Shown one piece after another: positions 1,120 to 25,034 of a stretch of 64,000 nucleotides of DNA. Source of the stretch: a phage; NCBI GenBank assembly GCA_014686985.1, contig GCA_014686985.1_3627.1. The stretch is one strand, 5' to 3'. The first letter of the stretch is position 1. Every line of letters begins with the position of its first letter. A program made the position numbers and the translations under genes. The notes under the pieces were generated by a model. The model did not search any database and had not been told where the DNA came from. It saw only the letters and a list, made by a program, of their open reading frames with translations.

Positions 1120-1120
1120 G

Positions 1121-1208: not shown

Positions 1209-1454
1209 ATGGCAGCACTAATCACCAAATATTATGCCCCTACCAACACCAAAAGCGCCCGTGTCATGGTAAAAGGCTTCGGACGTAAAAAGGTTTACAC
1301 CTGGGATTATGCCTTAGACACGGAAGACAACTACACCAACGCGATGACCGATTTTATTAATGATCTGAACACGCGGATCTTGACAAATTATAAAATTACC
1401 GACATTGCCTATATAGGGGAAGGCGGGATCTGTTTTGTCGGTATCGTCAAATAA
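1209..1454 (+). CDS. hypothetical protein (81 aa)
   Basis: ORF track; RBS GAGGAG 7 nt upstream of ATG. Confidence 0.55.
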   Translation: MAALITKYYAPTNTKSARVMVKGFGRKKVYTWDYALDTEDNYTNAMTDFINDLNTRILTNYKITDIAYIGEGGICFVGIVK

Positions 1455-1529
1455 GCTGTTTTTTCGGTGGTCCTGGTAGCAGGGCCATCTATAAAGACAG
1501 TTTATCAACACAATGAAAGGAGAAAGTAC

Positions 1530-1883
1530 ATGATCAGCGGGGCAAGTTTTATTATTGGCGCTATTGCTACGGCTTTAATTGTAAACAAGATCCAATCTAA
1601 AAACGAAAAAGAGAGCAACGCGCTCACAGAATACCCATTTTGGGTATTCAACGACAATGAAGACTACATTATCAAGTACAAGAATGAGAAGGGCGACCAG
1701 GTAACACCGCGACCGATCCCAGCTTACAAGATGCAAGAAACACTATACCGCCTAAAGGCTGGAGGCGCAAAAATCGTAGACTTTTGGGGATATGATTGCA
1801 AGGATCAGGAGGTTATAAAGCGCCGTATCCGGGCTATTCAGGCCAATATTGAAGTTAGCGAGGGGGGAATATATGAAGATTAA
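1530..1883 (+). CDS. hypothetical membrane-anchored protein (117 aa)
   Basis: ATG 1530 preceded by AAAGGAGAAAG; N-terminal hydrophobic helix ISGASFIIGAIATALIV; track start 1467 judged too far upstream. Confidence 0.55.
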   Translation: MISGASFIIGAIATALIVNKIQSKNEKESNALTEYPFWVFNDNEDYIIKYKNEKGDQVTPRPIPAYKMQETLYRLKAGGAKIVDFWGYDCKDQEVIKRRIRAIQANIEVSEGGIYED

Positions 1884-2070
1884 TTTTGAGAAGATTGTAA
1901 AGCGATCTCATGATTCCAAAGAGCTGCCGGAACGACGCCAGCGTAACAATAAACTGAATAAGCCGAAAAGATTTGGGAAGATCTGGCGAAATCACTATGA
2001 TCGCAAATTACCCAGCCTGCTTTTGGAACGTGAACGACAAGCGGAACGATACCGCCACAAAGACAAATAG
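1873..2070 (+). CDS. small basic protein (65 aa)
   Basis: ATG 1873 after GAGGGGGG RBS, overlaps upstream stop; Arg/Lys-rich. Confidence 0.45.
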   Translation: MKINFEKIVKRSHDSKELPERRQRNNKLNKPKRFGKIWRNHYDRKLPSLLLERERQAERYRHKDK

Positions 2071-2077
2071 CAACCAA

Positions 2078-2106
2078 CGCCCCGCCATTGTGCGGGGTTT
2101 TTATTT
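2078..2106 (+). terminator. rho-independent terminator
   Basis: GC hairpin CCCCGCCATTGTGCGGGG followed by TTTTTATTT. Confidence 0.6.
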
Positions 2107-2250
2107 CTATCCTACGAATAGCGCCCATGGTTGGCCCCACAAACGCCATAAAAGCCCCTACCTATGCAATCCCCTTTCTTAACCTGAAAACAGCGTCTAG
2201 GGCCGTTTTATGGCGTTAAAAATGTTATTGACAGTAATTTTATTTAAAGC

Positions 2251-2279
2251 TTGACACCTTGGAATAGTCCGGATATACT
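2251..2279 (+). promoter_or_regulatory. sigma70-like promoter
   Basis: TTGACA 2251-2256, 17-nt spacer, TATACT 2274-2279. Confidence 0.6.
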
Positions 2280-2307
2280 GACCACATCAAAGCAAGGAGG
2301 AAACGCC

Positions 2308-2568
2308 ATGCGTAAATTGAAAAATTTTGATAAGGTAGATGTAGTACTGAATAATTTTTACTACTGCAATAATAAAGCCGTTTGGTGGCGTGATAGTTCC
2401 ACCGATAAAGTTAAGGCGCGCTTTCTCCAAGGGCACTGGCAAGGCCGTCCAGTGATTAAAATCATGGGGCAATTGGTAGCGTTTAAAAATTGCCGCCGTG
2501 TTGATGACGTTGAAGAGATTTTAAGCATTTTGCGCCACAATAATTTAAAAAATAGTGTTGACAAGTAA
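2308..2568 (+). CDS. hypothetical protein (86 aa)
   Basis: ATG 2308 preceded by CAAGGAGGAAACGCC; track start 2251 lies inside the promoter. Confidence 0.6.
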   Translation: MRKLKNFDKVDVVLNNFYYCNNKAVWWRDSSTDKVKARFLQGHWQGRPVIKIMGQLVAFKNCRRVDDVEEILSILRHNNLKNSVDK

Positions 2569-2585
2569 ATCTCGATAAGTATACT
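2558..2585 (+). promoter_or_regulatory. sigma70-like promoter
   Basis: TTGACA 2558-2563 overlapping the upstream stop, 16-nt spacer, TATACT 2580-2585; followed by hairpin GGCGGGAAAACTTCCCGCC 2596-2614. Confidence 0.6.
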
Positions 2586-2642
2586 TAAACACACAGGCGG
2601 GAAAACTTCCCGCCACTAACAAAGAAAATAGGAGAAAATATC

Positions 2643-3266
2643 ATGACCACCGTTAACATTACCACAGGTTACAATTTATCTTTCGACGTGCTGACCGATG
2701 AACAAAAAGAAAAAGCTATTGAAATGGTCCGCGAAAGAGAAGAACACAGCGGGGATAACTTTTTTGCAGAAAGTGTAATTGAAGACTATAAAGAACATAT
2801 CTTTCCAGAGTATGGCCTTGAAGATACCAAGGTACATTGGTCCGGCTTTTGGTGCCAGGGCGACGGCGCGTCAATCAGTGCGGAAAACGTGGATTTAGAA
2901 AAATTCTTGCGTAAAGTCAAGTCTCTGACTAAATTCCGCTCAATTCGTCACTTGTTCGGCACAATGCACGATGGCGAGCTATCCGCAAGTGTTGAGCGTG
3001 ATCCATATAGCCGCTATAGTCACGAAAACACTGTAAGCGGGTACATCGATACTACATGGCTAGACCTGACAGCCAAGCAAGAAAGTAAGGTTGAAGAGCT
3101 GGAAGAGCTGATCACCGAGACGGTACGGGAGCTATCCCGCAAGGTTTATGTAGACCTGGAGGAGGCCTATCTTGAACAGTTTACTACCGAAAACCTGATC
3201 GGCCTTATTGAAGCCAATGATTGGCGGTTTAATGTGGATGAATATGGGGAGATGAGTTTTTCATAA
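2643..3266 (+). CDS. hypothetical protein (207 aa)
   Basis: ORF track; RBS AGGAGAAAATATC before ATG; acidic. Confidence 0.65.
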   Translation: MTTVNITTGYNLSFDVLTDEQKEKAIEMVREREEHSGDNFFAESVIEDYKEHIFPEYGLEDTKVHWSGFWCQGDGASISAENVDLEKFLRKVKSLTKFRSIRHLFGTMHDGELSASVERDPYSRYSHENTVSGYIDTTWLDLTAKQESKVEELEELITETVRELSRKVYVDLEEAYLEQFTTENLIGLIEANDWRFNVDEYGEMSFS

Positions 3267-3355
3267 ATAAAGTGTTGCAATAATCTAAAAACCTGCTATA
3301 TTAAAACTCAAGGGGCGAGATGACTTGCCCCACACAAAACAAAGAGGAAAACATC

Positions 3356-3736
3356 ATGAAAAACACCACCAAGGCTATTGACACCGTTATGTTTAACCTG
3401 GTTACATTCCGTGAAGATATGAAAGATCTTCCACGTGAAACTGTGTGCGACCATATCGAAAACTATCGCAAACTAATCAAAGAGTTGCCTTTAAAACGTG
3501 ACCAATATGCGGCTAACGCTATGCTTAACGCCATGATCAAAAAGATGATTCAGTGTGATTTAACTCTGGCCTATGATTATGCAGGTGGTCGTTTTGCAGT
3601 ATACAATCAGCCCGTGCCTGGTATGAGCACCACCGAAGAATTGCACGCGCTCAATCTAAAACAAGATGTGTGGGATAGTATGCCCCGCGTGGTGGTATGG
3701 GTAGAAAGCGGAAAGATTTACGGCGATAATTTTTAA
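3356..3736 (+). CDS. hypothetical protein (126 aa)
   Basis: ATG 3356 after AAAGAGGAAAACATC; upstream 5' UTR hairpin GGGGCGAGATGACTTGCCCC. Confidence 0.6.
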   Translation: MKNTTKAIDTVMFNLVTFREDMKDLPRETVCDHIENYRKLIKELPLKRDQYAANAMLNAMIKKMIQCDLTLAYDYAGGRFAVYNQPVPGMSTTEELHALNLKQDVWDSMPRVVVWVESGKIYGDNF

Positions 3737-3746
3737 TCAGGTAACA

Positions 3747-3776
3747 GGCGGCGGCATATTTGCCGCCTTATTGTTA
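3747..3776 (+). terminator. rho-independent terminator
   Basis: hairpin GGCGGCGGCATATTTGCCGCC followed by TTATTGTT. Confidence 0.55.
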
Positions 3777-3803
3777 ATCAGAACTGTAAAAGAGGTACAT
3801 AGA

Positions 3804-4175
3804 ATGGAATTTATTATTTTGGCTATATTAGTTGCCTTGTTTAACGCCTGGATCGCTGGCAAGATGGGCAGATCCGCCTTTTTATGGTTTATTATATCTA
3901 TTTTCCTGGGAGTGGTTGCAACTATTGTATTGGTTATCCTTGCAATTGTTGACAAGGGGAATAATAGAAAGGGTAAAGTATTTTCAGACCTGTACGACGC
4001 TCAAACATTTGTCAACGCCTACTACAGCGATCTTCCAGTCTCCCTACGTTGCAGCCTTGCACAACAGGTTTTCGATGAAGCTAAAACCAGAGATCACGCC
4101 CATGAGATTTGTTTAACTGAGGCGGATCGCCTATTTGAGAGGAATAGAAAATATGTGGACCAGCCGTTTAAATAA
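3804..4175 (+). CDS. hypothetical membrane protein (123 aa)
   Basis: ATG 3804 after AAAGAGG; two hydrophobic helices in the N-terminal half. Confidence 0.55.
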   Translation: MEFIILAILVALFNAWIAGKMGRSAFLWFIISIFLGVVATIVLVILAIVDKGNNRKGKVFSDLYDAQTFVNAYYSDLPVSLRCSLAQQVFDEAKTRDHAHEICLTEADRLFERNRKYVDQPFK

Positions 4176-4285
4176 TGCCACGTTAATTAATCCCTTTAGT
4201 GAAGATTTGAAGCCAGCCGCCTGGCGCGATGGATTCAATAACGAAAGCTTTATTTTCAGGCCTGATCTTAAGGAATTTTATAACA

Positions 4286-4411
4286 ATGGATCGAACAACG
4301 ACAGAGATAATTTTTCTTGTAATGTGCGTGGTGATAATACTCCTGGGGGCCATTGCAAACCACGTCACTGCTAACAGGAGGGGAGGGGGAGACGATGACA
4401 ACCAAGGATAA
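4286..4411 (+). CDS. small transmembrane peptide (41 aa)
   Basis: ATG 4286; single hydrophobic helix IIFLVMCVVIILLGAIA; an alternative overlapping frame (4153-4374) exists, so the call is uncertain. Confidence 0.35.
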   Translation: MDRTTTEIIFLVMCVVIILLGAIANHVTANRRGGGDDDNQG

Positions 4412-5263: not shown

Positions 5264-5614
5264 ATGAAAGTAAAACTATATTACCTTAATGAGCTTAACC
5301 CCCTTGCCCAGGTCCGCGCCATAGCTAATACCTTGATTTGTGAGAAATCTGTATATTGTGTTGAGCTTAACGCCATGCGTGAACGTCTCAAAGGTGGTTA
5401 CTTTGACATCCATACTGCAATCAACGGCCTGAATATGGAATTTATACGCTTACGTAACAGCCGCTGGAATCTGGCAAGAATGGAACAAGATCCGGCCTAC
5501 CTTCGTAAGCTGGTTATTGAAAATCATCTGATGTTTAATGCCGAGGGTGATTATTACCATTTTCACCGCAGACGCTGGTACCGTGGCGGCAATACAGGCA
5601 AGAATGCAAAATAA
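5264..5614 (+). CDS. hypothetical protein (116 aa)
   Basis: ORF track; followed by GC hairpins 5615-5690. Confidence 0.55.
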   Translation: MKVKLYYLNELNPLAQVRAIANTLICEKSVYCVELNAMRERLKGGYFDIHTAINGLNMEFIRLRNSRWNLARMEQDPAYLRKLVIENHLMFNAEGDYYHFHRRRWYRGGNTGKNAK

Positions 5615-9202: not shown

Positions 9203-11760
9203 GTCTGCTCTTCTCCTACCATAAACGGCCCTACCCGGCAAGTGGAATAATTGACTAGCCATTAATCCCACACACTGTACAAATATACATATAAAATAAC
9301 TATTGCATAATCTTTCACTGTGTGGTAGCAGGGCCATTTTTACCCGTTTTCTCTCCCAAAAGTGCACGTAATGCCGCTATTGCACAAATTTTAACCTGAT
9401 GCACATCTCCAATATCTTGTCAACAACTAAAAATCTTTATAAGTCATACACTTACACAACATAGAAAGCGTGTCCTACGCGAAAAATCGAGTATAACTAT
9501 GGCCGCCAGATCTCAGAATTCACGTACGCACGCCATTCTATAGCCTGCAAAGTATTTATTCCAACCACAGAATAACGGAATAGTCAATACCTGCATAAAA
9601 TAATTATTCGTGTAAACTGCATAACATAAATCAGCTCAGGTGTCAACATTTTTCGTAAACAGTCCGAAATTATCACGATGAGTTATCATAAACAGAGAAA
9701 TCTTTAGTCGTCTAATGTTTACTGTACATTACTATACTGACTGGAATCATTAGATGACTAAGAGAAAGATAAGAAATAATTAATAATGTGATTATTTTAC
9801 CTGTAACAATAAGGCAACTATGCAAACGAATGGCATGGCGCGACGGAGTCGCGACATAATATAAAAGCAGTAACCATCACCCCCGTGATAGTTTGTCTGC
9901 AAACTATTAATCAGATCATAGTTGCCTTGTATTTAGTTAATCATGACATAACAAGCAAGGCAACTATAGATCTTCTAATAGTTGCCCTGCTTTTATATTA
10001 TGTCATAGAAACACCCGAAGGGGTGACCAAAGGCCACCTGGCATAGCCAGCGAAAGATTATTAACTTGCTAATAGTTATCATGCAAACGAATGGCATGGC
10101 TTATCATTTCCATGTAAATAGTTAGCTATGTAAACTATTGGTCATGTAAACCATTAAGCATGTAAACAGTAAGAGCGTGAACAGTAAAGGGAGTGAATAG
10201 TAATAGCGTGAATAGTGACAGCGTAAACAGTCAGGCATGTCAATTATGTCATATTGTGTCACCATTATGTCTAAAGTGTCATATTGTGTCAGACAAGTTT
10301 TTCTCCTCTTTGTCAAGTGCTGCATGAAAAATTTACAAGCTGGTATGGTAGCATTTTTGCGGCCCTGTTTACATTCAGTGATGTATGTATAATCCTTGTT
10401 GTGTGGGCGTTTAGACGTCTAGACGGTTGGAAGTCCACAGGTCAATATCTAATCTATCGGCTGCTAACTATATCCCACACAAATAGTAAGAAATATGATT
10501 GTTATATGCGTAAACAGTAACTCATGTTATCAATCCCTGTATGTATCGCCAGTGGTGCGCATAATGGGTATTATGTTAAATTGCCCGTAATGATAATGGT
10601 TCTCACAATGATAGGTATTCTCATTCCCCCACACAAAATAGATTGCAAATGTTGTGCCACTATGTGAACGGCCTCACCTATTAATTTGCCTCACTGCCTC
10701 GATATTTGAGAATTGTTATAAGAATGAGAATGATTCCCATTTCGTCCGCCTGGCAGCACTCCTGTAGGTCCTGCAAGGACTCTAGCTGAAAGCTAGACCC
10801 TTCGGGCCTCCCTGTAGGTCAGGTCAAAATCGTGGTAGAATTGGGCCTGTTCAGATATTTCTGGCTGACTCTTCAGGTCTGTGTGGGAAAAGCCAACCTC
10901 TCCGGCGGCGGGGAGGGGGTCAATTAAAAAAAAAATTACGTGGTGTATGAAGCGCTCTTCAGGTAAGGCATATATTATGAGATGAAACCCTCTTCAGGTA
11001 ATGATATTTGTGGGTGTGATATTTGCTGGAAAGCCAGATATGACGGGACTCCCGGCGGGGCAGGGGTAGTACAGACAGGGAAAATATGAGAATGTAGTTG
11101 GGGAAATTGATCAGACAGGTAGAGTATGGAATATGTTACAAGTATGTTAAATATGGAGGTTGAATATCTGTAGGGTTTGTGTGTAAAATCAAAGACTTAA
11201 GGGGTGTTGTGGTATTTTCTATAAATAATTCAAGTTTAATAGGCAATATTTGTCTCTATCCGCTTTGTGTGGTAAACAGATTCAGATTAGATTGGTTTAC
11301 AAGTGTATACATAATATACAAATTAAAGATACAAGAAACCCCCCTCCCCCTTCGGCTACCATTCACCTTTTCCTCTGACTGGTACTTAAACACTTATTCA
11401 GACTCTTCAGGTTATCACCCATATATCATATGGCAGTGACTGGTGTCCTCCGGCCCCTCTTTCGTCACCCGTCCGCTTCGCCATGCTAATGCCATAGCCA
11501 ATGGTTCGGTTGTTCACCCTGTTCACTCAGGTGTATCTCCATACCCCTTCAAACCGAAGAGAACAGAAAACCCGAATTACTCGGTAAAAGAAAAGAGAAG
11601 AACTTAATTTTATCAGGATAGGCAAGAATGTCAAGGCATGACTGCTCACTAAACAAGCAAACAGTCATGTGTGGGAGGTAAGTGATTGTGGTGGTAGGAA
11701 ATTTAGTTGAAAGATGTGTTATAGGTGCTTCCAGCACTTTAGCCTGGCAGCTAATTGTGT
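9203..11760. repeat. non-coding repeat-dense region (several families of short direct and inverted repeats)
   Basis: no convincing ORF on either strand; recurring motifs AGGCAACTAT / ATAGTTGCC, CAAACGAATGGCATGGC (x2), TGTCATATTGTGTCA (x2), CATGTAAA and GTGAATAGT series, CTCTTCAGGT (x4), CCTGTAGGTC (x2). Confidence 0.6.
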
Positions 11761-11761
11761 G

Positions 11762-12043
11762 TCAGTCCAGCGGTTCATCCTCTACTTCACTGAAATCAAT
11801 GTTCATGGTCTCTTCCCAACCATCGATCTCAGCACAAGAGTAGAGATCTTTAGGACTTACTCCCAAAGCCTCAGCAACAGAGTCTATATTTAACACCTCT
11901 GGCAGGTATGATTCATCGAATTCAAGGTAAATCAGGCCACGAGTGTTGTCAGCTCCACCAAATATTTCTATCTTCATGAAATCTCCTCTGGAAATGAGAA
12001 TGTGAACAGGGTTTATATGTTCCAATGCACTGGAATTATGCAC
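11762..12043 (-). CDS. hypothetical acidic protein (93 aa)
   Basis: ORF track; last gene of the minus-strand block. Confidence 0.5.
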   Translation of the reverse strand: MHNSSALEHINPVHILISRGDFMKIEIFGGADNTRGLIYLEFDESYLPEVLNIDSVAEALGVSPKDLYSCAEIDGWEETMNIDFSEVEDEPLD

Positions 12044-12670: not shown

Positions 12671-12982
12671 CTATACCCATGATGGCTTATCAAGGTTGGA
12701 GTAGCTGAAAGGTGTCAAAAGGTGACTGTCAAAATCTCTCAAACTATCCAGATCTTTTTCCTCGTCCTGACACCATCTGTGCCTGCATTTATTGTTGTAG
12801 TGCATAGAATGCATGGCGTTCTGCAACTTAACAGGCACAAGTGATTCCGGAGTAGATAGTATTGTTGGGTATGCTAGAACCACCTCAAACAGTGGAAACA
12901 CATCGAAACTAAAATCTACCTCTGCAGAGGTTGATGGCATGTAGGAGTATTTAGCCGTCTTTGTAGACATAATCCACCTCAC
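12671..12982 (-). CDS. hypothetical protein (103 aa)
   Basis: ORF track. Confidence 0.55.
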   Translation of the reverse strand: MRWIMSTKTAKYSYMPSTSAEVDFSFDVFPLFEVVLAYPTILSTPESLVPVKLQNAMHSMHYNNKCRHRWCQDEEKDLDSLRDFDSHLLTPFSYSNLDKPSWV

Positions 12983-14452: not shown

Positions 14453-14746
14453 TCATAGTGCCTCTAAGATTTCATATCCTTCGGGTCGGAATACAAGCCA
14501 CTCCGTGGCTCCGTTTGGTCGATACGCTTTATACAGAACAACCTGGTCTCGGCACATGCACATGGCTACATAGTTTTCATCCACACCTGCAGCCTGCATT
14601 GCATCTTCTTCTCCGGCAACTGCTTTGCTTACAACTTCCTTGGTAGGCAGGTGTGCGATCAGCTCGTCACCATCATTAATTCCAAAATGGCTGAGTTCGC
14701 CGTTGGTATCTTTAATCTTAATCTTAATCTTAACCAGATCTTTCAT
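14453..14746 (-). CDS. hypothetical acidic protein (97 aa)
   Basis: ORF track. Confidence 0.55.
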   Translation of the reverse strand: MKDLVKIKIKIKDTNGELSHFGINDGDELIAHLPTKEVVSKAVAGEEDAMQAAGVDENYVAMCMCRDQVVLYKAYRPNGATEWLVFRPEGYEILEAL

Positions 14747-15075
14747 TAGTCTTCCCCCAGGTTCAAAGGTCCTAAGATTTCATATGCCAGATTAGAAGTT
14801 ACAAGAGGGTCTTCTGCGTCTTTAGTATTATACCACCCGTGAATAACCAGAGTCCCACTTTGTTTCATGTCCAACTGGAACTCTTCTGCCGTTTCCTCAT
14901 CCAGCTCCAAGATTTCCATAAGGTATTTGATGTTAGGGAGGTATGCAGCTGTTACAGTCCCCTCTACCAGACCTTCAGGCCAACCTACATCTGGATGACA
15001 AGTAGGAACCAGGTTGGTCAGTTTAATGGTGTACGCTTTTTCTGCACGAGCCTTCAGTAACGGGTCAATCTTCAT
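14746..15075 (-). CDS. hypothetical protein (109 aa)
   Basis: ORF track; start/stop overlap with neighbours. Confidence 0.55.
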   Translation of the reverse strand: MKIDPLLKARAEKAYTIKLTNLVPTCHPDVGWPEGLVEGTVTAAYLPNIKYLMEILELDEETAEEFQLDMKQSGTLVIHGWYNTKDAEDPLVTSNLAYEILGPLNLGED

Positions 15076-15425
15076 TATTCGTCCTCCTCTTCGGTACCTG
15101 CTTCCAGTAATAAGTTAAGAATATCTTCTGCACAAGGTTCATAGAACTCTTGGCCTTCATTATCGATGATTTTGTAGTCATCTCCACGAATAATCAGGGG
15201 ATCACTCTCAAAATTATCGAGACCTTTAACAACGACAACACGATCGATTGCCATCATTGTAAGAACTTTATCGACATCTTCCTCTGCTACACCATACTGC
15301 AGCAGAATGTCTTTGGTAGGAGGAACAGCATCCACCACAACGCCGTTACCAAAACCTTCTGGAAGTTTAGCTAAAATATCTTCCGGAACCACATTCACAT
15401 CAAAACCGGTAATTTCTACTTTCAT
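15075..15425 (-). CDS. hypothetical acidic protein (116 aa)
   Basis: ORF track; MKVEITG N-terminus. Confidence 0.55.
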   Translation of the reverse strand: MKVEITGFDVNVVPEDILAKLPEGFGNGVVVDAVPPTKDILLQYGVAEEDVDKVLTMMAIDRVVVVKGLDNFESDPLIIRGDDYKIIDNEGQEFYEPCAEDILNLLLEAGTEEEDE

Positions 15426-15686
15426 TTACAGCACCTCTTCGTCAACTACTTCATAAAAATGGCCTGGGATTGCAATAGCGTTCTCACCTTCACCTACAAA
15501 CACAGTTCCGTCAAGAATCAACATCATAAGAATTTCTGTAATATCCTCTTCCGGAACGTTGCCAAAACCTTTAATCAGCTCGTAGGTTGGAATATTTACC
15601 TCTAAGATGTCACCATCTTTAGAACGGAAATCAACACCGTCCTGAATCTCTGCCGTTTCAAGGTTTTTCAATTTAATCTTCATCAA
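15426..15686 (-). CDS. hypothetical acidic protein (86 aa)
   Basis: ORF track; MMKIKLKNL N-terminus. Confidence 0.55.
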   Translation of the reverse strand: MMKIKLKNLETAEIQDGVDFRSKDGDILEVNIPTYELIKGFGNVPEEDITEILMMLILDGTVFVGEGENAIAIPGHFYEVVDEEVL

Positions 15687-15762
15687 TCGGTCCCCTGTCT
15701 TGTTAAGATGAAGGTATTATTTCACACAGGGTTGGCGTTGTCAACACCTGTGTGCAAGAAAA

Positions 15763-16158
15763 TTACTGAAACAGTGCGGATAAATTACCTTCTGGTGGGA
15801 ACTTATCTGCCAAAAACGGTGTTAGCACAGTAGCCTTCTGAAGATCTGGGGTCCACTCGTTGTTCAGAACATCCCAGTAGTACGCAATGTTGCTGTGTGG
15901 GTGCCGCATTACGAACTTTTTCCCTTCGTAGTCATCTGAAACCTCTACAGAAGAAATAACAACAGAATCTTCAAGGGTTTCTTCATAGAAAGATCCACCT
16001 TCAAATTTCCAACGAGATGCAAGAGCCCCTGCCTTGAACGCTGCAGATAACGGACTGTCGGCAAGAACATACATTTCTTGCACTCTGTCGCTGCGATCTT
16101 TGCTTCTTACGTTGTATACAGTATCTGAGCTATACTCAACACGGTATAGGCTTACCAT
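15763..16158 (-). CDS. hypothetical protein, paralog of 17970-18368 (131 aa)
   Basis: shared C-terminal motif H-P-x-S-x-(I/V)-x-(Y/H)-Y-W-(D/N)...W-T-P...A-T-(V/P)-L. Confidence 0.6.
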   Translation of the reverse strand: MVSLYRVEYSSDTVYNVRSKDRSDRVQEMYVLADSPLSAAFKAGALASRWKFEGGSFYEETLEDSVVISSVEVSDDYEGKKFVMRHPHSNIAYYWDVLNNEWTPDLQKATVLTPFLADKFPPEGNLSALFQ

Positions 16159-16490
16159 TACCGCACCTCCTCAATAACTTCCACATCTGAACCTACCACA
16201 AATGCAAAAGGACAGGTTTCATGAAAGATATCCGGATCGCCGCCAAGCTTGCTAACAATTTCTCCACCACTAATAAACACAAGCTCACCGATATTCATCA
16301 GATTGCTGAAATAGTACCCATAATGATTAAAGAATGCAGCAGGGTCAGGTAGACTAGTAGCCTCAAGCACTACATCGGTTGAGGTTACTTTCTTATCATA
16401 ACCTCTCGCCTTTTGAGATGCAAGATCTGCAGAATCCTCAGGCGACCGGAGATGCACAGGAATTGTTTCACCAATAAAGCGTACTTTCAT
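16158..16490 (-). CDS. hypothetical protein (110 aa)
   Basis: start placed at internal ATG (MKVRFIG...) after GGTGA RBS to avoid overlap with the upstream gene. Confidence 0.5.
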   Translation of the reverse strand: MKVRFIGETIPVHLRSPEDSADLASQKARGYDKKVTSTDVVLEATSLPDPAAFFNHYGYYFSNLMNIGELVFISGGEIVSKLGGDPDIFHETCPFAFVVGSDVEVIEEVR

Positions 16491-16494
16491 ATTA

Positions 16495-16758
16495 TCACCC
16501 AACAACCATAGCTTCAAAAGGAGTCATGAACGAATAAACGGCATCATCATCTGCTTCAGGGAATGCTCCCAAAGACTTCATATCTGAGCCCTTGACAAAT
16601 ACAAGGTTTTGATCAAAGGCTTCTTGGGGGTCAATCCGATACATATTTCGTAAAATATCGCTTACCTCCTCATCAAGAGGTGAGTATGCTGTGCACGTTT
16701 TTCCGATCAAGCTTTGAGAATCAGGGTATCCACCTGAAGTTTTAAAATAAACAATCAT
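16495..16758 (-). CDS. hypothetical protein (87 aa)
   Basis: ORF track. Confidence 0.5.
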   Translation of the reverse strand: MIVYFKTSGGYPDSQSLIGKTCTAYSPLDEEVSDILRNMYRIDPQEAFDQNLVFVKGSDMKSLGAFPEADDDAVYSFMTPFEAMVVG

Positions 16759-16849
16759 ATAGTATCACCTCTGGTAAGAGATTGGGACTCCTTTCCCACA
16801 AATAATTACAAATCTTCCTTAGCGAGGAAGTATGCTAATCCAAGCAGGA

Positions 16850-17119
16850 TTATACCTCTACAATCTCATACACATCAGGAGTTACAATCAACTCCTCTCC
16901 GTTACCCGGTGCAACAAACACCACCAAACCTTCAGGTGTGTGCTTTTTAGCCATCTCGATAACATCCTCTCGCAGAGCTGGCCCCATCAGATCAAAACCT
17001 TCACCCAGGGCATCACGAACCACCTTCATATAGTCAACTGGTTGTGCTTCGACAATCATGCCTTCAACCAGTCCACAGTTTTTGTCTGCCAGCTCAGTTT
17101 TGAATAATTTAATTTTCAT
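16850..17119 (-). CDS. hypothetical acidic protein (89 aa)
   Basis: ORF track; MKIKLFK N-terminus. Confidence 0.55.
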   Translation of the reverse strand: MKIKLFKTELADKNCGLVEGMIVEAQPVDYMKVVRDALGEGFDLMGPALREDVIEMAKKHTPEGLVVFVAPGNGEELIVTPDVYEIVEV

Positions 17120-17145
17120 TTAGAGGTCTCCTCAATTATTTGATA

Positions 17146-17247
17146 TTAATAGCCGTAACCTAACACATTAACTACAACTGCGATTGCAAACATACTTTCA
17201 AAGCATGCAATCTCTACATTTGGGACTAATTTCTTAATCACACCCAT
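17146..17247 (-). CDS. small hydrophobic peptide (33 aa)
   Basis: ATG 17247 after GAGGTG RBS; MGVIKKLVPNVEIACFESMFAIAVVVNVLGYGY; short, so uncertain. Confidence 0.3.
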   Translation of the reverse strand: MGVIKKLVPNVEIACFESMFAIAVVVNVLGYGY

Positions 17248-17256
17248 TGTAGCACC

Positions 17257-17577
17257 TCATTCTCCAAAGTCAATCTTTACTTTGCCTTTCCCCTTACCTT
17301 TCTTTCCACCGCATTTAGCCAGCTGACGTGCTGCAACATCTACCATACGGTCAGTTGCCTCGTAAGCATCACTGCCTTTAGCCTTGGCAATAACTTCTTT
17401 TCCAGAATTGTCAAAAATGAACGCCATAACTTCCTGGTGATCATTTTCAACTTTTACACTCACACGTGCATAGTTAACAGAGGGATGTAAACGCTCCAGC
17501 TTGGACATTTTGCGGGAAATAAAAGATACCATACCTTCTGTGATTTCTACATTGTTGCCAGTGATTTCAATTTGCAT
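17257..17577 (-). CDS. hpf: ribosome hibernation factor-like protein (HPF/RaiA family, 106 aa)
   Basis: N-terminus MQIEITGNNVEITEGM and ...ARQLAK... closely parallel E. coli HPF/YfiA (MQLNITGNNVEITEAL ... LARQLTK); Gly/Lys-rich tail. Confidence 0.7.
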   Translation of the reverse strand: MQIEITGNNVEITEGMVSFISRKMSKLERLHPSVNYARVSVKVENDHQEVMAFIFDNSGKEVIAKAKGSDAYEATDRMVDVAARQLAKCGGKKGKGKGKVKIDFGE

Positions 17578-17661
17578 AACGTGTTCCTTTTAAGGAAGAG
17601 GGAATAACTATCTCTCTTTGAAAACAATGATACTAAATCTGAAGCGTTGTGTCAACAGTTT

Positions 17662-17952
17662 TTACAGCTTGTTGTCGATAGTTTTTAAAATATCCACAGC
17701 AAGATCTGCCATTTTTCGAACATACTCTGCAAACTCAACAGGATCCTTGATCAAAGAATTCACAGGGTCGTACCCTAGAGCGTTTAAAATGGCTGCAGCA
17801 TCTACAACCTTCTCATCATTTGCGAAGATCTCTCCGTCAAACTTGTAGGTCCATTTTGAGTCAACCTTAGCAGAGCAGGGTTTGTCCATGCTTGTTACAC
17901 CATCGTCTTTAAACTCTCCTGCGTTATCAATATTTAGAATTAAATCCATCAT
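17662..17952 (-). CDS. hypothetical protein (96 aa)
   Basis: ORF track. Confidence 0.55.
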   Translation of the reverse strand: MMDLILNIDNAGEFKDDGVTSMDKPCSAKVDSKWTYKFDGEIFANDEKVVDAAAILNALGYDPVNSLIKDPVEFAEYVRKMADLAVDILKTIDNKL

Positions 17953-17969
17953 GGTGACACCTCACTGTT

Positions 17970-18368
17970 TCAGTTTAGCTTTTCTTCAACAACCCCATAA
18001 CTTGGGGCAGAGTCAAGAGCTTTCTGGTTTAAAAGTGGCGTAGCAGAATCTGCAAACGGTGTCCAAGTTTTTGTTCTGGCATTCCAGTAATGCTTCACTC
18101 TGGAATCTGGATGCACTATAACAAAAACTTTTTCACTTGTCAACACATTAATTTCTTCTACACCCTTGCTGATAATTTCTCCGTCATAGCCCCCAGTCTG
18201 GTATCCTTCGTACCAGGTTCTTGCATAGGCATAGCCAGCCTGCCAGCATGCAGCCTCCTCCGAGGTGGAGACTACGTAGAAGTCTTTCTCAAATTCTGGA
18301 ATACGCCCTTGCTTTACGCTCCAAGCCCCGCGAATTTTCATTGTAACTTTAAACAGTTTATTTTTCAC
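17970..18368 (-). CDS. hypothetical protein, paralog of 15763-16158 (132 aa)
   Basis: shared HYW / WTP / ATPLL motifs with 15763-16158. Confidence 0.6.
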   Translation of the reverse strand: MKNKLFKVTMKIRGAWSVKQGRIPEFEKDFYVVSTSEEAACWQAGYAYARTWYEGYQTGGYDGEIISKGVEEINVLTSEKVFVIVHPDSRVKHYWNARTKTWTPFADSATPLLNQKALDSAPSYGVVEEKLN

Positions 18369-18380
18369 AACGGTTACCCA

Positions 18381-18635
18381 TCACAGCTCTACAATATCTG
18401 CATCTGACCCTACCCCAAAGGCATAATAGGACTCTTCCCCGAAATAATATTCAGGTGCACCAGCGGTGATCAGGTCTGATCCCAAGATAAACACCACGTT
18501 GTGGCCTACATAACTGTGATGTTGCCGCACAGGATCATCCCACGGCAACCCTTCAAAGTATACCGCAGGAACGACCTTTCCATTCAGGAAGGATTGTCCC
18601 AAGTAGACGTTAGAATCAAGAATTTTAACCTTCAT
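18381..18635 (-). CDS. hypothetical protein, MKVK-family paralog (84 aa)
   Basis: MKVKILDS...G(S/A)DLI(T/A)AGA shared with 18625-18852 and 22178-22411. Confidence 0.6.
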   Translation of the reverse strand: MKVKILDSNVYLGQSFLNGKVVPAVYFEGLPWDDPVRQHHSYVGHNVVFILGSDLITAGAPEYYFGEESYYAFGVGSDADIVEL

Positions 18636-18852
18636 GATCGTCCTCCACTACCTCTACATCCTCACCTAGGGCAAAGTTATAGGTCCACTGACTGTCAAAG
18701 CATTCCTGAGATGCACCAGCGGCAATAAGATCTGCTCCTTTTATTTTTAAAAGGTCAGGGTAATCTTCGTTAGGGACAGCAGTAAACACTTTTCCTACTA
18801 AAGGCTCCTGACCAATATAGAAGCTTGAATCTAAAACTTTAACTTTCATCAA
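18625..18852 (-). CDS. hypothetical protein, MKVK-family paralog (75 aa)
   Basis: MMKVKVLDS...GADLIAAGAS. Confidence 0.6.
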   Translation of the reverse strand: MMKVKVLDSSFYIGQEPLVGKVFTAVPNEDYPDLLKIKGADLIAAGASQECFDSQWTYNFALGEDVEVVEDDHEG

Positions 18853-19136
18853 CGGTCTCCATCAGGTGGTTGTGGGACGTAAACACTGTTACGAATATCG
18901 TCAGCAGTGTAGTAATAAGTGGTTCCAACCCTGTCTCGGGCTGCAACGTACTCTGCTATACCAATAAGTGCCATTGATTTGGTGGCGTATCTTCCCAACT
19001 CGTTAGCTCCCCAGTAGAATTTAGACCAGTAGGGAATAAGACCGAACAAATATACCTTTTGACGAACTTCCCAGTAAGTGCCTTTTCCGACAAGTTTAAA
19101 CTCTACTTCACTACTGTTAATCTTTTTCATTATCAA
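18849..19136 (-). CDS. hypothetical protein (95 aa)
   Basis: ORF track. Confidence 0.55.
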   Translation of the reverse strand: MIMKKINSSEVEFKLVGKGTYWEVRQKVYLFGLIPYWSKFYWGANELGRYATKSMALIGIAEYVAARDRVGTTYYYTADDIRNSVYVPQPPDGDR

Positions 19137-19429
19137 TCTCCCTCTACCGTGGTCGGATTGTCAGTAAGAAATTGAGCATTGGCTGGAGGCACGCCTGACA
19201 TTTTCCACACAACCATAAGTTTGTAACCAGGCACTCTATTAAGTGCAGATCGAGTAGAGTTTGTGCACGTATACTTTCGCTTTCCAAACCCGTTCTCCAT
19301 CATAATCCAGTACCCAGTATCTTTGTCACCAGGTATCGGTAGACCACCTTCATCAACCCACTGAATGGACCACGGCACGATGGCTACAGCTTTATATTTA
19401 AACTTTTTAAACCACTCAAAAAGTTTCAT
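19133..19429 (-). CDS. hypothetical protein (98 aa)
   Basis: ORF track. Confidence 0.55.
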   Translation of the reverse strand: MKLFEWFKKFKYKAVAIVPWSIQWVDEGGLPIPGDKDTGYWIMMENGFGKRKYTCTNSTRSALNRVPGYKLMVVWKMSGVPPANAQFLTDNPTTVEGD

Positions 19430-19614
19430 AATTCAGCCTCGCTTGGCAACTCTTCTACCTTAACATGCCGAAAAGTGTTACCGTAATGGTTGATCCATGA
19501 CATCAGCTCGCTTTCTTGCTCTTCCTCTGGGATGAACTCTCGAATGCTGACAAGTTTTAAGAAAACCCAATCACAATCTGCACCCATTCTACCAGACAGG
19601 CAATAGTGCTTCAT
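19426..19614 (-). CDS. hypothetical protein (62 aa)
   Basis: ORF track; 4-nt overlaps both sides. Confidence 0.5.
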   Translation of the reverse strand: MKHYCLSGRMGADCDWVFLKLVSIREFIPEEEQESELMSWINHYGNTFRHVKVEELPSEAEL

Positions 19615-19632
19615 AAAACCCTCCTGCCCGGT

Positions 19633-19827
19633 TTAGAATATTGCTTCTTCCATTGCGCCTGAGAGCAACAAAGAGGTGATCTGGCTAACATTCATCTCAG
19701 ACTCTACTTCCTCCCCTTTGAAAGGTTCGCGGCAGAATAGGACTGTTTCAGGACTTTTACTTCGAACAATATAATACAAATCATTCAATGTGTTGTAGTA
19801 ATAAGTGTTAAAACGTAAGTTTTTCAT
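19633..19827 (-). CDS. hypothetical protein (64 aa)
   Basis: ORF track. Confidence 0.5.
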   Translation of the reverse strand: MKNLRFNTYYYNTLNDLYYIVRSKSPETVLFCREPFKGEEVESEMNVSQITSLLLSGAMEEAIF

Positions 19828-20111
19828 TTTCTAGTCCTCTTCTTAGATTTTTGGGGAGAAACGCTTTCTGCAATACGAGACAGACGTTCTTCTGAAGCCT
19901 TACCTACTCCAGGTTTTTTGAGTGGATTATCTTTATGACTACAATCCAACCGGATATTGGATACCTCTCCAACTTTGTAAGTCAATTCTAGCAAAAGGTT
20001 GTCGTCCTTGTCAAATGTTTTTACGATAAATTTTTTATCGTTCTCCTGAACTTCATATCTGGTACCTGCAGTATACAGCATGGTGCCATCAGCATAGGAT
20101 ATCCAGATCAT
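19824..20111 (-). CDS. hypothetical protein (95 aa)
   Basis: ORF track; basic C-terminus. Confidence 0.55.
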   Translation of the reverse strand: MIWISYADGTMLYTAGTRYEVQENDKKFIVKTFDKDDNLLLELTYKVGEVSNIRLDCSHKDNPLKKPGVGKASEERLSRIAESVSPQKSKKRTRK

Positions 20112-20455
20112 TGAGCCTCCTTTTGCTGCAACAGCATTAACTCTTTGTTAGAGATCTTTACTGCTGTTTTTATTGTTCCATCTTCACGAAACCACGACCA
20201 GAACTCTACAGTGTCACCACTATCAAGTAAAGCATGCCCATGGTAAAAATCTTTGTCCTTAGACAGTTTCTCATCTATATCTGCATCAACACATTCGTGA
20301 TCCATAGCATTTTGCCTGAACGCATCGGTTATGCCAATGCACGCCTTGCTCTCAAGACTGGTATATCCGATATCTTTTAATTCAGTTTCCCAAGTCCAGT
20401 ACCCTATAAAAGCTAAAACAGCTACCCACAGTAATAACGTTTTAATCTTTGGCAT
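20108..20455 (-). CDS. hypothetical exported/membrane-anchored protein (115 aa)
   Basis: N-terminal hydrophobic LLLWVAVLAFIGYW. Confidence 0.55.
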   Translation of the reverse strand: MPKIKTLLLWVAVLAFIGYWTWETELKDIGYTSLESKACIGITDAFRQNAMDHECVDADIDEKLSKDKDFYHGHALLDSGDTVEFWSWFREDGTIKTAVKISNKELMLLQQKEAQ

Positions 20456-20517
20456 TCTCTCTACCTCTTTCTTAGTTTATTTCACTATGGCACATCCTTT
20501 GTGCCATATCTCAACTA

Positions 20518-20988
20518 CTACTTAAATAGTAGTTCAAAATAGTGCAAAATTAACAGAAGTTGAACTACACCTAGTGCAACGGCGAGTATGTTAATCTTAG
20601 AATCGAAAAACTTCTTAACTTTTACTCTAAAAGGTTCCTTAATGTCCTTTACGATCCTATCTATAGATGACCTCATATCTCTGATTACCATCCTGAACAT
20701 TAAAGACGGATGCTCCCCCATCTCTGTAACGGAATCGAAAACATACTCTCTTCGGTCATAAGGGCCGCCAGCTCTGCGTATTAACCTCTCCACAGAGACC
20801 TCGAACGTCACACCTGTAACGTAATCATCTATAACAAGTCGTGACGGGTCTTTACCTTTACTATCAAGAGGTATCAAAGTTATCTTTCCAGATTTTGTTA
20901 AAATTTCCCCTTTTTCAAGCAAGGTGTACCAATGCTCTCTGCCAAGACTGTTGAGGCACGTTTTTACATATTTAACAAACATCGTCAC
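20518..20988 (-). CDS. hypothetical protein with C-terminal TM helix (156 aa)
   Basis: ORF track; C-terminal ILAVALGVVQLLLILHYF. Confidence 0.55.
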   Translation of the reverse strand: MTMFVKYVKTCLNSLGREHWYTLLEKGEILTKSGKITLIPLDSKGKDPSRLVIDDYVTGVTFEVSVERLIRRAGGPYDRREYVFDSVTEMGEHPSLMFRMVIRDMRSSIDRIVKDIKEPFRVKVKKFFDSKINILAVALGVVQLLLILHYFELLFK

Positions 20989-21170
20989 CCCTCATCGCAC
21001 GTCTGATATAACCACTCTATAAAATCTTGATACCATTCGCCCTCTGAGCGCTCCGTAGGCCAATAATCTTCACCCTCTCGTGCATTAAAATCTGAGTATT
21101 CAACTTTCCACTCCTTTACCAGCTCGTGGAGAAGGTTTTCAGCCTGCTCTAAAGATTTATTTTTTACCAT
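20985..21170 (-). CDS. hypothetical acidic protein (61 aa)
   Basis: start placed at ATG (MVKNKSLEQ...) after AAAAAGGAGACAGCA RBS. Confidence 0.5.
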   Translation of the reverse strand: MVKNKSLEQAENLLHELVKEWKVEYSDFNAREGEDYWPTERSEGEWYQDFIEWLYQTCDEG

Positions 21171-21264
21171 TGCTGTCTCCTTTTTCAAGATAGTTATACA
21201 TCAGAACTGCACTACCTAAGATGGCTACCAGTAACAATATCCCAGATAGCATCTCAATAAACAT
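21157..21264 (-). CDS. small transmembrane peptide (35 aa)
   Basis: hand-traced MFIEMLSGILLLVAILGSAVLMYNYLEKGDSNGKK; no clear RBS, so weak. Confidence 0.3.
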   Translation of the reverse strand: MFIEMLSGILLLVAILGSAVLMYNYLEKGDSNGKK

Positions 21265-21389
21265 GGCTTGAAACACTGGAAGGTCTCCCTAAATTAACGC
21301 ACCATTTTAAATACATGCTCTTTTCCCATAAAGGTGCCTGGCTAAGATCTGCGTAGAACGCAATCTCTTTAAGAACAGTATAGATAGTT

Positions 21390-21617
21390 TTAGGTGCGGT
21401 CTCCATCCCTACTCTCCTTCCTGATATTCTTGTAGTAATCAACTAGGCACATTATTACGATGAAGATAACAACAGGCCAAAAAGGTGCAGCAGTGATGAT
21501 GGTGATAAAATCATCAAACTTCACCCTTCGTCTGGACACGATGCATACACCTGTCAAGAATACCGCTGTTATAACGGACATTACCAGGTAACCTATTAGC
21601 ACAACATTTATACTCAT
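21390..21617 (-). CDS. hypothetical two-TM membrane protein (75 aa)
   Basis: two hydrophobic helices and charged C-terminus (holin-like topology, not adjacent to the endolysin). Confidence 0.5.
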   Translation of the reverse strand: MSINVVLIGYLVMSVITAVFLTGVCIVSRRRVKFDDFITIITAAPFWPVVIFIVIMCLVDYYKNIRKESRDGDRT

Positions 21618-21647
21618 TGGTCCTCCCTTTGTAGGTTAAATTGTATA

Positions 21648-22181
21648 CTACAAATGGTCGCTGAGGGTGTCAAGAAAATTATCCCGTTCTTTCTCAGAGT
21701 TTTCATGTGTGTAGCTGAAAAACATATCGAGAATAACCTTATTGATATATTCCAGCTCCTCTGTGTTCAGATGCTTAGCAGGATCTACAATGACATCCCA
21801 AATATCATACAGACCACACTCATGATACCCATAACGCCACTCAATTGTCAAGCTGAGCGGCAAATCTTTACCTTCACAAACAACCTTCCATCTACATATG
21901 TTGGTATCTGGTCGTACCTGTGCACGGTACACCTGCACAAAATCCAATTTGAATTTGAGGTACTCGTCATACAATTTAAGCACAAAGCTCTCGATTTGTG
22001 GAGACACTTTTGCAGCAAACTGTGCGTATTTGTACTTGCACTGGATGATCTTTCTGCGTTTTGCAGTTAAATTTTTTGCCGCCAGTTGTTCTTCAGTGTA
22101 TCTCCACCTACGATCAACAAACGCAACAGGGTCTTTGTCCCCATAGAGGTCTTCCCAGTTAATCAGAAGCATACCTGTCAC
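21648..22181 (-). CDS. hypothetical protein (177 aa)
   Basis: ORF track. Confidence 0.6.
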   Translation of the reverse strand: MTGMLLINWEDLYGDKDPVAFVDRRWRYTEEQLAAKNLTAKRRKIIQCKYKYAQFAAKVSPQIESFVLKLYDEYLKFKLDFVQVYRAQVRPDTNICRWKVVCEGKDLPLSLTIEWRYGYHECGLYDIWDVIVDPAKHLNTEELEYINKVILDMFFSYTHENSEKERDNFLDTLSDHL

Positions 22182-22411
22182 TCCTCCACAACTTCAAGGC
22201 CTTTACCGCCTCGCTCTGGCAGATTACTTAAAGATAGGTAATACATATAATCAGGAGAGATCCTGCCAGACTCTGCACCTGCAGCTAGTAAATCCTTCCC
22301 TTTAACCAGGACAACATTCTCGTTTGCAGATAGCCGTTTTGCTTCCACAATTTTACCAACACAGTCAACCAAGGAAGGGTACCCTAAATCTGTAAGAAAT
22401 TTAACTTTCAT
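22178..22411 (-). CDS. hypothetical protein, MKVK-family paralog (77 aa)
   Basis: MKVKFLTDL...GKDLLAAGAESG. Confidence 0.6.
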   Translation of the reverse strand: MKVKFLTDLGYPSLVDCVGKIVEAKRLSANENVVLVKGKDLLAAGAESGRISPDYMYYLSLSNLPERGGKGLEVVEE

Positions 22412-23984: not shown

Positions 23985-25034
23985 TTAAGCTTCTTCGACA
24001 ATTCCTGCACCCAGGATTTTTTCATTGAGCTCTTTTGCTGTTTTAATAATATTGTCCACCAGACGCTTGCGAGTCTTATCTTTCACCTTAACCTCTTCAC
24101 CGCCGTTCAGAGTAGTCTTCAATTGAGACAGAATATCCTGAAGTTCAACGACAGAGAATCTCTGCAGATCTTCTGAAGTAATCTCACCCAGGGCAATTCT
24201 GACGGTCTCGCCACTCTCCATCTGCAGATTCAGGAACACAGTGTGAACATCACCTTTCGAACCACCCGCTTTTGCAGATTCAACAGCATGAACTAACTCA
24301 TCTAAAGATGTGCACTGGTGAATCTCCGGAAGACCTGCTTCACCTAACACGCCTTCTTCATCACCTTTTGCCAGAAGCTTTTTCGGTTTTTGTCCGTTCT
24401 GGATGCGTTGTATGTTGCCTTCATCCAGAATAATAGCTCCAGTGCGTGCTGCCAGCTCTTCTCCGTCCAACCACACTTCGCCACCAGCTGTGATGGATGC
24501 GATCTCATCTTCTGTCAGCACCCCACCGTAGTATTTTTCGATCAGGCGTTCAAAACGTTTTTTCCAGTAGCTGACCTGAGTATTCATGTTCACACCGTTA
24601 CCATAAGTGCCACCTTGATAGTAGTGGAACATAAACTCTGTGTCCGGAGCCACAGTACGTTCTTTACAACCAAGCCATAAGATTGTTCCAGCAGAGCAGC
24701 ACATCCCTTCAGCATGTGCAACAACGCTTGCCTGAGACTCTCGGAATGCCTGCAGATAAGCCATTGCAATGTGCACGCAACCCCCAGGGCTATTGATGAT
24801 CACCCGAATGCTTTCTTCCGGCTGAGCCATACGGATCGTCTGCAGACGAGACATATGATCTTGTAAGTCTTCCAAATCGTCGATATAAAGAACGTGGTCA
24901 ACAACAGGTGTTGGGTAGCTGTATGTTTCCATGATACCGCCCGGCATACCAAACATTTTATTACTCATAGGTTCGAAACCGTTCTGTTTTTCTTTCATGC
25001 CGTGTACCATGGTTCTGCGAGGTGTTAAATTCAT
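23985..25034 (-). CDS. ClpP-like serine protease (S14 family; candidate prohead protease) with C-terminal extension
   Basis: INSPGGCVH...AEGMCCSAGTILW resembles the ClpP core around the active-site Ser. Confidence 0.6.
   Translation of the reverse strand: MNLTPRRTMVHGMKEKQNGFEPMSNKMFGMPGGIMETYSYPTPVVDHVLYIDDLEDLQDHMSRLQTIRMAQPEESIRVIINSPGGCVHIAMAYLQAFRESQASVVAHAEGMCCSAGTILWLGCKERTVAPDTEFMFHYYQGGTYGNGVNMNTQVSYWKKRFERLIEKYYGGVLTEDEIASITAGGEVWLDGEELAARTGAIILDEGNIQRIQNGQKPKKLLAKGDEEGVLGEAGLPEIHQCTSLDELVHAVESAKAGGSKGDVHTVFLNLQMESGETVRIALGEITSEDLQRFSVVELQDILSQLKTTLNGGEEVKVKDKTRKRLVDNIIKTAKELNEKILGAGIVEEA

Follow-up and report, generated by a model that had tools for sequence, protein, structure and literature searches.

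Paralog families of small accessory proteins in an rV5-like phage and a host-dependent transposon signal

The phage contig GCA_014686985.1_3627.1 (assembly GCA_014686985.1) was analysed over 64,000 nucleotides (the window), in which a run of minus-strand genes extends from about 12.7 to 48 kb; the subject here is a 9-kb block of small genes within that run, and in it a set of twelve genes between 14.4 and 22.4 kb, each named below by its lower coordinate. At 99.8% identity, the stretch from 15 to 23 kb matches sequenced rV5-like phages (Vequintavirus), among them 'Campylobacter phage C12', Escherichia phages navn and Murica, and the BASEL phage Bas58. In all annotated relatives the genes at 13–23 kb are 'hypothetical', except for a ribosome hibernation factor (17257–17577) and a 'putative glycosidase' label that BASEL records attach to 21648–22181; a methyltransferase, a ClpP-like protease and PhoH are encoded just past 23 kb. 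Large phages commonly carry small paralogous accessory genes. The rV5-like phages, about two-thirds of whose genes lack an assigned function, find wide use in the biocontrol of E. coli O157 and in phage-therapy collections. The twelve 'hypothetical proteins' collapse into three families, which we call A, B and C (Table 1); ten of them share one predicted fold, and four can be tied to a published transposon signal that had passed unremarked, a complete or strong loss on one clinical isolate.

Three gene families at 14.4–22.4 kb

The original prediction, made from the sequence alone, had picked out three proteins that begin MKVK (18381, 18625 and 22178), a pair with an HP.S..YW…WTP motif (15763 and 17970) and a looser group joined by an MK(I/V)(K/E) start and an acidic composition, and had read them as amplified, diversifying families of a kind that in phages often comprises host-takeover or anti-defence factors. 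The observation is borne out in part, and the interpretation is likewise partly supported. Both explicit groups are real families in which the quoted motifs are present. In all-against-all BLAST comparison, run over 33 local proteins and then over the 381 open reading frames (ORFs) of the window of at least 45 amino acids (aa), their scores lie far above both the shuffled and the whole-window background: 18381 and 18625 are 40% identical over 83 aa (E 2e-13), 18625 matches 22178 at E 8e-6, and 15763 and 17970 are 28% identical over 119 aa (E 7e-9). Since the similarities within A and B stay above background, the fall to background level that had been named as telling against the families was not seen for these two.

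As delimited by sequence comparison, family A is made up of five genes, namely two adjacent pairs (18625/18381 and 16495/16158) and the dispersed 22178; the second pair was absent from the original prediction. A hidden Markov model (HMM) of the three MKVK proteins, searched against the 381 ORFs, retrieves 16495–16758 (E 1.3e-6) and the ORF at 16158–16517 (E 4.5e-5), and a profile that excludes 16158 and was built mostly from distant database relatives recovers that gene at E 7e-8. Profile–profile alignment with hhalign places eight of nine further family A pairs at 76–92% probability, the comparison of 16158 with 16495 being weak (16.5%). The hallmark of the family is a G-x-[DE]-L-[IL]-x-[AN]-G-A motif located after strand 3 of the predicted fold. 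Part of families A and B is already grouped in PHROGs: 18381, 18625 and 22178 match phrog_5009 over their full lengths (E 4e-32, 2e-38 and 8e-36), and this group is evidently the core of family A, to which 16495 gives a weak match (E 1.2e-4; its best match is its own phrog_13920), while 16158 is assigned to phrog_13661 only. The dispersed copy, 22178, passed the BLAST and shuffle tests and is 100% identical to its ortholog in phage Bas54. At the level of individual genes, 18381 overlaps 18625 by 11 nucleotides (nt), the start formerly given for 18625 (18852) adds one Met to the ATG start at 18849, and the 16158 protein has an additional N-terminal segment as well as an insert. Two ORFs with similar starts, 11762–12043 (internal MKIEIF) and 5264–5614 (MKVKLY), matched no family profile and were rejected as members.

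Family B is the pair 15763/17970, and phrog_7379, which both proteins match over their full lengths (E 2e-66 and 4e-74, respectively), corresponds to this family. From the ranking of 119 matching records 30 genomes were sampled, and in all of them the 15763 protein has an identity of 97.7% or more. Sequence searches of PDB, Pfam and NCBIfam gave no match for family B, and tblastn at E up to 5 returned Vequintavirus records only; a similarity to a Listeria phage A118 protein that is noted in the rV5 record was not reproduced.

The looser MK(I/V)(K/E) group resolves in part into a third family, C. Its members 15075, 15426 and 16850 join two genes that had not been predicted (14453 and 14746), so that family C, as judged by alignment, consists of five genes; 22449, which had been placed in the same group, stays at background against the family C proteins. 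The similarity between 15075 and 15426 is weak but significant (BLAST E 4e-4), and 14453, 14746 and 16850 align co-linearly with these two over their full length. When each gene in turn was left out and sought among all 381 ORFs with an HMM of the other four, the omitted gene ranked first five times out of five (E 1.6e-5 for 14453, 8.7e-3 for 14746, 1.5e-7 for 15075, 3.6e-3 for 15426 and 1.8e-4 for 16850), the next best ORF having an E of at least 0.38. Pairwise identities within the family are 20–33%, and PHROGs puts the five genes into five separate families, so their kinship is not recorded there. Net charges range from −6 to −21 and the isoelectric points (pI) of the very acidic members from 4.05 to 4.8; the 15075 protein, with a highly acidic C-terminal tail, has a net charge of −21 and a pI of 4.05. 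The acidic composition is thus shared as had been predicted, but it is not distinctive, most proteins of the block being acidic. In rV5 itself (DQ832317.1, 10602–10872) the ortholog of 14453–14746 is annotated as two overlapping short ORFs (ORF153 and ORF154), which suggests a frameshift, or a difference in annotation or sequencing, in that family C gene.

Read in the direction of transcription, the genes lie in the order A(18625), A(18381), B(17970), 17662, the promoter site P144, the hibernation factor gene, a small ORF, C(16850), A(16495), A(16158), B(15763), the promoter site P150 and the family C genes 15426, 15075, 14746 and 14453. An A-A-B triad is therefore present twice (18625/18381/17970, triad 1, and 16495/16158/15763, triad 2). 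Both promoters are intergenic sigma70-type sites with 11/12 matches, and both coincide with promoters annotated in the rV5 record; P144 lies in the gap upstream of the hibernation factor gene and also precedes 16850, 16495, 16158 and 15763, and P150 lies upstream of the four-gene family C run. The presence of small, mostly acidic paralog families is confirmed, and their setting is one of sigma70-promoted operons. The hibernation factor, of the HPF/RaiA type (S30AE family; minus strand), sits between the two triads downstream of P144, and its ortholog is non-essential in transposon insertion sequencing (Tn-seq) of Bas54.

Table 1. Family genes and associated sites, in window coordinates, listed in the direction of transcription
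Feature	Position	Strand	Size	Description	Bas54 / rV5 ortholog
Family A	22178..22411	-	77 aa	Minimal SH3-like barrel (predicted); dispersed copy	bas54_0166 / ORF127
Family A	18625..18849	-	74 aa from ATG	Heads A-A-B triad 1	bas54_0159 / ORF140
Family A	18381..18635	-	84 aa	Loop insert between strands 2 and 3	bas54_0158 / ORF141
DLIxAGA-encoding repeat	18453..18482		30 nt	80% identical to 18709–18738 in the neighbouring paralog 18625	
Family B	17970..18368	-	132 aa	Directly downstream of A pair 18625/18381	bas54_0157 / ORF142
Sigma70-type promoter	17627..17655	-		TTGACA-17-TATCAT, 11/12 match; rV5 P144 position	
Family C	16850..17119	-	89 aa	Dispersed; barrel with three-helix insert (predicted)	bas54_0153 / ORF146
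Family A	16495..16758	-	87 aa	Heads A-A-B triad 2; insert between strands 2 and 3	bas54_0152 / ORF147
Family A	16158..16490	-	110 aa		bas54_0151 / ORF148
Family B	15763..16158	-	131 aa	Directly downstream of A pair 16495/16158	bas54_0150 / ORF149
Sigma70-type promoter	15716..15744	-		TTGACA-17-AATAAT with TG, 11/12 match; rV5 P150 position	
Family C	15426..15683	-	85 aa	Heads four-gene tandem run downstream of P150	bas54_0149 / ORF150
Family C	15075..15425	-	116 aa		bas54_0148 / ORF151
Family C	14746..15075	-	109 aa	Weakest member	bas54_0147 / ORF152
Family C	14453..14746	-	97 aa		bas54_0146

Fold, age and distribution

On the evidence of predicted models and sequence comparison, one SH3-like small-barrel fold is likely for both A and C, and the two families are probably of common origin. 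The AlphaFold2 model of 18625 (family A; alignment of 19 sequences; predicted local distance difference test, pLDDT, 92.7; predicted template modelling score, pTM, 0.80) has five strands and a short helix, and in that of 16850 (family C; 24 sequences; pLDDT 93.3, pTM 0.74) the order of the five strands is unchanged and three helices separate strand 2 from strand 3. Both have the features of SH3-like small beta-barrels, that is, five antiparallel strands that superpose on SH3, KOW and PsaE structures, and they match largely the same PDB chains, including 2vkn_A, 4zn3_A, 2akl_A, 3fc3_A, 7k9b_A and PsaE, with the KOW domains of Spt5/NusG and ribosomal L24 also among their structural neighbours. 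The profile alignment of A with C is co-linear from end to end, with the helical insert left unaligned (70 columns, E 3e-4, probability 39%), and in both families the first strand reads MK[VI]K[IL] and the last [DY]xE[VI][VI]E. The MK[IV]x[ILVF] start found in nine of the 123 putative genes of the window, seven of which are A or C members, corresponds in these models to the first strand of the fold. None of the family proteins matches Pfam at E up to 0.1, and neither NCBIfam nor a PDB sequence search gave anything usable for any family. Nor are A and C canonical SH3 domains by sequence, with no Pfam SH3 match and neither the ALYDY motif nor the WW dipeptide present on inspection; the Pfam KOW profile detected no KOW motif, and a Foldseek search of the viral models in BFVD returned uncharacterised phage proteins only.

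The description of these genes as amplified and diversifying is not supported. Between copies, one 30-nt DNA similarity is left, and orthologs are far closer than paralogs, so recent amplification is rejected. A divergent relative (L008) has the same gene order, with family proteins 39–80% identical and the block overall 39–89% identical, and it has separate orthologs, much closer than paralogs, of seven of the twelve genes (the five A genes, 16850 and 15763); its contig ends before the four tandem C genes, and a non-homologous gene occupies the position of 17970. All twelve genes were found in each of the eight other Vequintavirus genomes compared, where Nei–Gojobori ratios of nonsynonymous to synonymous substitution (dN/dS) are 0.04–0.23 for all twelve, within the range of their neighbours, and positive selection is rejected at the whole-gene level. 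In the most distant genome, four of the genes (18381, 18625, 22178 and 15426) belong to the more divergent ones (79–88% identity, against 93–99% for most neighbours) and are nevertheless under purifying selection. Old, stably retained duplicates are a better description of the data than diversifying amplification.

Traces of recombination between the copies can also be seen. The 30-nt stretch that encodes DLIxAGA coincides with the junction in P0014, a natural fusion protein of 70 aa encoded on a 133-kb contig; P0014 runs from the N-terminus of 18625 to AAGAS and continues with the C-terminus of 18381; the junction lies within the conserved AAGA motif, and its position at this microhomology implies unequal recombination between the tandem paralogs. 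A variant of 18381 with an internal deletion (P0037) was observed as well.

Outside the genus, family A is by sequence an unannotated domain, without a Pfam or NCBIfam entry, that recurs in many phage lineages, often in several copies. When 1.84 billion representative proteins were searched exhaustively with a profile, 41 clusters came up, most of them of 63–87 aa with the pattern MKVKLLNDGGY…VGKV..A…G.DLI.AGA…Y.F..G.E.EVIEE, and in a few polypeptides the domain is present two or three times. The family is represented in a lambdoid E. coli prophage, where the gene is flanked by the Q antiterminator and the holin; on a 42-kb phage contig that has a second copy, adjoining replication genes; in Krischvirus Phi1 and Tlsvirus LL5, in both cases within variable regions of small genes; and in Proteus and Vibrio phages. 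Phi1 (EF437941.1) has its own cluster of at least two and probably four copies within about 1.7 kb, so the domain is multi-copy in an unrelated lineage too. The matching genes fall within positions 900–4330 of that genome, where a variable region separates gp38 from dam; ORF073 and ORF074 match clearly, ORF071 and ORF076 probably and ORF080 marginally. The contigs of three distant members (P0069, P0042 and P0050) are too short for informative context. Families B and C turned up in rV5-like phages only.

Requirement on a clinical isolate and its interpretation

Bas54 (phage MaxBurger) has been studied by HIDEN-SEQ, a form of Tn-seq (bioRxiv 10.1101/2025.11.20.689424, Data S2 and S7), and its proteins are 97–100% identical to those of the window for all twelve family genes, which is the basis on which orthologs were mapped. 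On K-12 (Data S2) all twelve orthologs are classed as 'non-essential' or 'intermediate', so no conserved essential step depends on them. Data S7 compares K-12 with the clinical isolate CFE311, and in it the three genes of triad 2 fall to zero reads on CFE311 (log2 fold change −6.77 for 15763, −6.17 for 16158 and −7.16 for 16495, each with an adjusted p shown as 0), and the other B gene, 17970, drops about 4-fold (−2.14, adjusted p shown as 0). The remaining values are not significant: −2.78 for 16850, −0.04 to +0.40 for the four tandem C genes, and −0.30, +0.98 and +0.72 for 18381, 18625 and 22178. We count 27 significant genes in Data S7, in agreement with the table header; the CFE303 sheet stored before it carries the identical numbers of CFE311, and the host contrast is that of CFE311 alone. 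The preprint does not discuss bas54_0150, 0151, 0152 or 0157. Its Bas54 knockout plaque assays concern only the anti-DS-28 genes bas54_0063 and bas54_0140, and the CFE311 systems selected in it are DS-28 and Gao_Tmn only (bioRxiv 10.1101/2025.11.20.689424). An anti-defence gene would be dispensable on a permissive host and needed on one that carries the defence; of the twelve orthologs, four are depleted and eight unchanged on CFE311, a single host, and polarity is formally possible. The original guess of a host-takeover or anti-defence role thereby gains indirect experimental support for four genes, and the other eight show no phenotype there.

The best-supported reading is one of accessory binding modules that K-12 does not call for; on one particular clinical host, the second B gene and a minimum of one A-A-B triad are needed, and the most plausible purpose is the countering of a strain-specific immunity factor. 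Taken as a whole, the observations are best explained, with somewhat better than even chances in our judgement, by old paralog families that serve as host-specific accessory or counter-defence binding modules. The twelve genes would then constitute three old families of small accessory proteins in sigma70-promoted operons, A and C probably descending from one ancestor and the copies arising by ancient local duplication and being kept by purifying selection. The A, B and C proteins may be non-enzymatic binding modules, each engaging a different host protein, and triad 2 may act as one unit; such modules would be dispensable on K-12 and needed on hosts with the matching factor, most likely an immunity system. 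The accessory character of family A elsewhere, as seen in the Q–holin site of the prophage, the neighbourhood of replication genes and the variable small-gene regions, fits this account. The repeated A-A-B order suggests segmental duplication, although no clean gene-by-gene correspondence between the triads was found by profile–profile comparison, and we put an origin of the two triads by such duplication at somewhat less than an even chance. Polarity through bas54_0150 could explain the depletion of bas54_0152 and bas54_0151.

Such polarity leads to an alternative that we consider unlikely, namely that on CFE311 only the B gene 15763 matters, the depletion of 16495 and 16158 being polar and families A and C having as yet no measurable role. 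The genes 16850, 16495, 16158 and 15763 do lie head to tail in that order between P144 and P150, with depletion that grades from −2.8 (not significant) in the most upstream gene to complete loss downstream, and the depletion of the B paralog 17970 as well points to B as the active family. However, insertions in 18625 and 18381, upstream of the depleted 17970, are themselves not depleted, which counts against simple polarity, and the preprint's authors argue that polarity is uncommon, reporting little of it overall in their libraries (bioRxiv 10.1101/2025.11.20.689424).

A similarly low probability attaches to the idea that the proteins are general host-takeover factors acting on conserved machinery (RNA polymerase, the ribosome or proteases), with the need on CFE311 reflecting a physiological or allelic difference in the target. 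Structural neighbours such as the KOW domains of Spt5/NusG and ribosomal L24 are in keeping with it, as is the location of the genes, which flank the phage's hibernation factor gene and have ClpP-like and PhoH-like genes nearby; a conserved target would also account for the strong purifying selection and the near-invariant 15763 more readily than an arms race would. Yet all twelve genes are dispensable on K-12, a conditional need seen on one clinical isolate usually marks a strain-variable factor, and the structural matches are to generic SH3-like barrels in which Pfam found no KOW motif.

A more specific version of the counter-defence account, in which A-A-B is a three-protein module whose two SH3-like adaptors and B protein together disable an immunity system in isolates like CFE311, is one we would also regard as improbable at present; here the second triad, the extra A gene and the five C copies would have diverged to act on other host factors. 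If true, the A barrel would be a widespread, so far unrecognised anti-defence domain common to rV5-like, T-even, T1-like and lambdoid phages. Still less probable is that the very acidic members, especially those of family C, are DNA mimics that block DNA-binding defence proteins. Their low pI, the acidic tail of 15075 and the promoter-proximal accessory operon would suit such a role, but no protein matches the Ocr, ArdA or Arn families in Pfam or NCBIfam, the predicted compact SH3-like barrel is unlike known mimics (elongated proteins, either helical or of the beta-helix type), the neighbouring proteins are for the most part just as acidic, and the four tandem C genes show no phenotype on CFE311. 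Finally, that there are no real families and only chance or compositional similarity among short acidic proteins starting with MK is scarcely credible: the proteins are short, 25 of 123 putative genes begin MK or MMK, and identities within family C are low, but the possibility was tested and rejected for A and B.

Relative to what PHROGs already records, the present analysis adds two members of family A, family C, the predicted SH3-like fold shared by ten genes and the repeated A-A-B order, as well as the wide unannotated spread of the A domain and the link to a conditional-essentiality signal. Assigning a function to these genes could illuminate both a widespread part of phage 'dark matter' and the host-range differences among therapeutic phages.

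Several neighbouring features deserve brief mention. MaxBurger naturally lacks the equivalent of 19190–20985 (genes 19133 to 20988); of the 19133 protein it keeps only the first 19 residues. The five or six small genes concerned are therefore dispensable in nature. The ClpP-like protease (23985–25034, minus strand, 349 aa) has a C-terminal extension of about 150 aa past the normal ClpP domain and is 'intermediate' in the Bas54 essentiality map. Among the clustered tRNA genes of 52538–53350, ARAGORN predicts a 99-nt tRNA-like gene (53007–53105, plus strand) with a four-base anticodon (atcc), at which Rfam reported no tRNA. At the strand-switch point, 9400–11760, about 2.3 kb have no ORF above 86 aa and no Rfam match; this is the intergenic region of about 2 kb in Bas54 with zero transposon insertions, for which an important function, possibly as an origin or regulatory region, has been inferred (bioRxiv 10.1101/2025.11.20.689424).

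Comparison with known systems

One of the closest parallels lies in the same gene block. The 99-aa gene at 12671–12970 (minus strand; its own phrog_12072) is 98% identical to bas54_0140, which has been validated by knockout as needed against DS-28 of E. coli CFE311 (bioRxiv 10.1101/2025.11.20.689424). Like the four depleted family genes, bas54_0140 belongs to the minus-strand block, is non-essential on K-12 and is strongly depleted on CFE311; it differs from them in having been validated by knockout against a cloned system, and it is not homologous to A, B or C.

The small-ORF cluster of the T-even phage Phi1 (ORF071–080) resembles the window in its clustered copies of family A; these copies form a separate, lineage-specific set, less than 40% identical to the window genes, and no B or C partners were seen there. 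T7 Ocr, ArdA and T4 Arn are likewise small, very acidic, non-enzymatic proteins from promoter-proximal accessory regions, whereas A and C have no sequence match to them and a different predicted fold. Lastly, set beside the known SH3-like barrels that their models resemble (SH3, the KOW domains of Spt5/NusG, PsaE and the C-terminal domains of retroviral integrase and PhnA), with which Pfam and NCBIfam searches found no sequence relationship, the A and C proteins appear as free-standing phage proteins of 74–116 aa, family A with a hallmark motif of its own and family C with its three-helix insertion.

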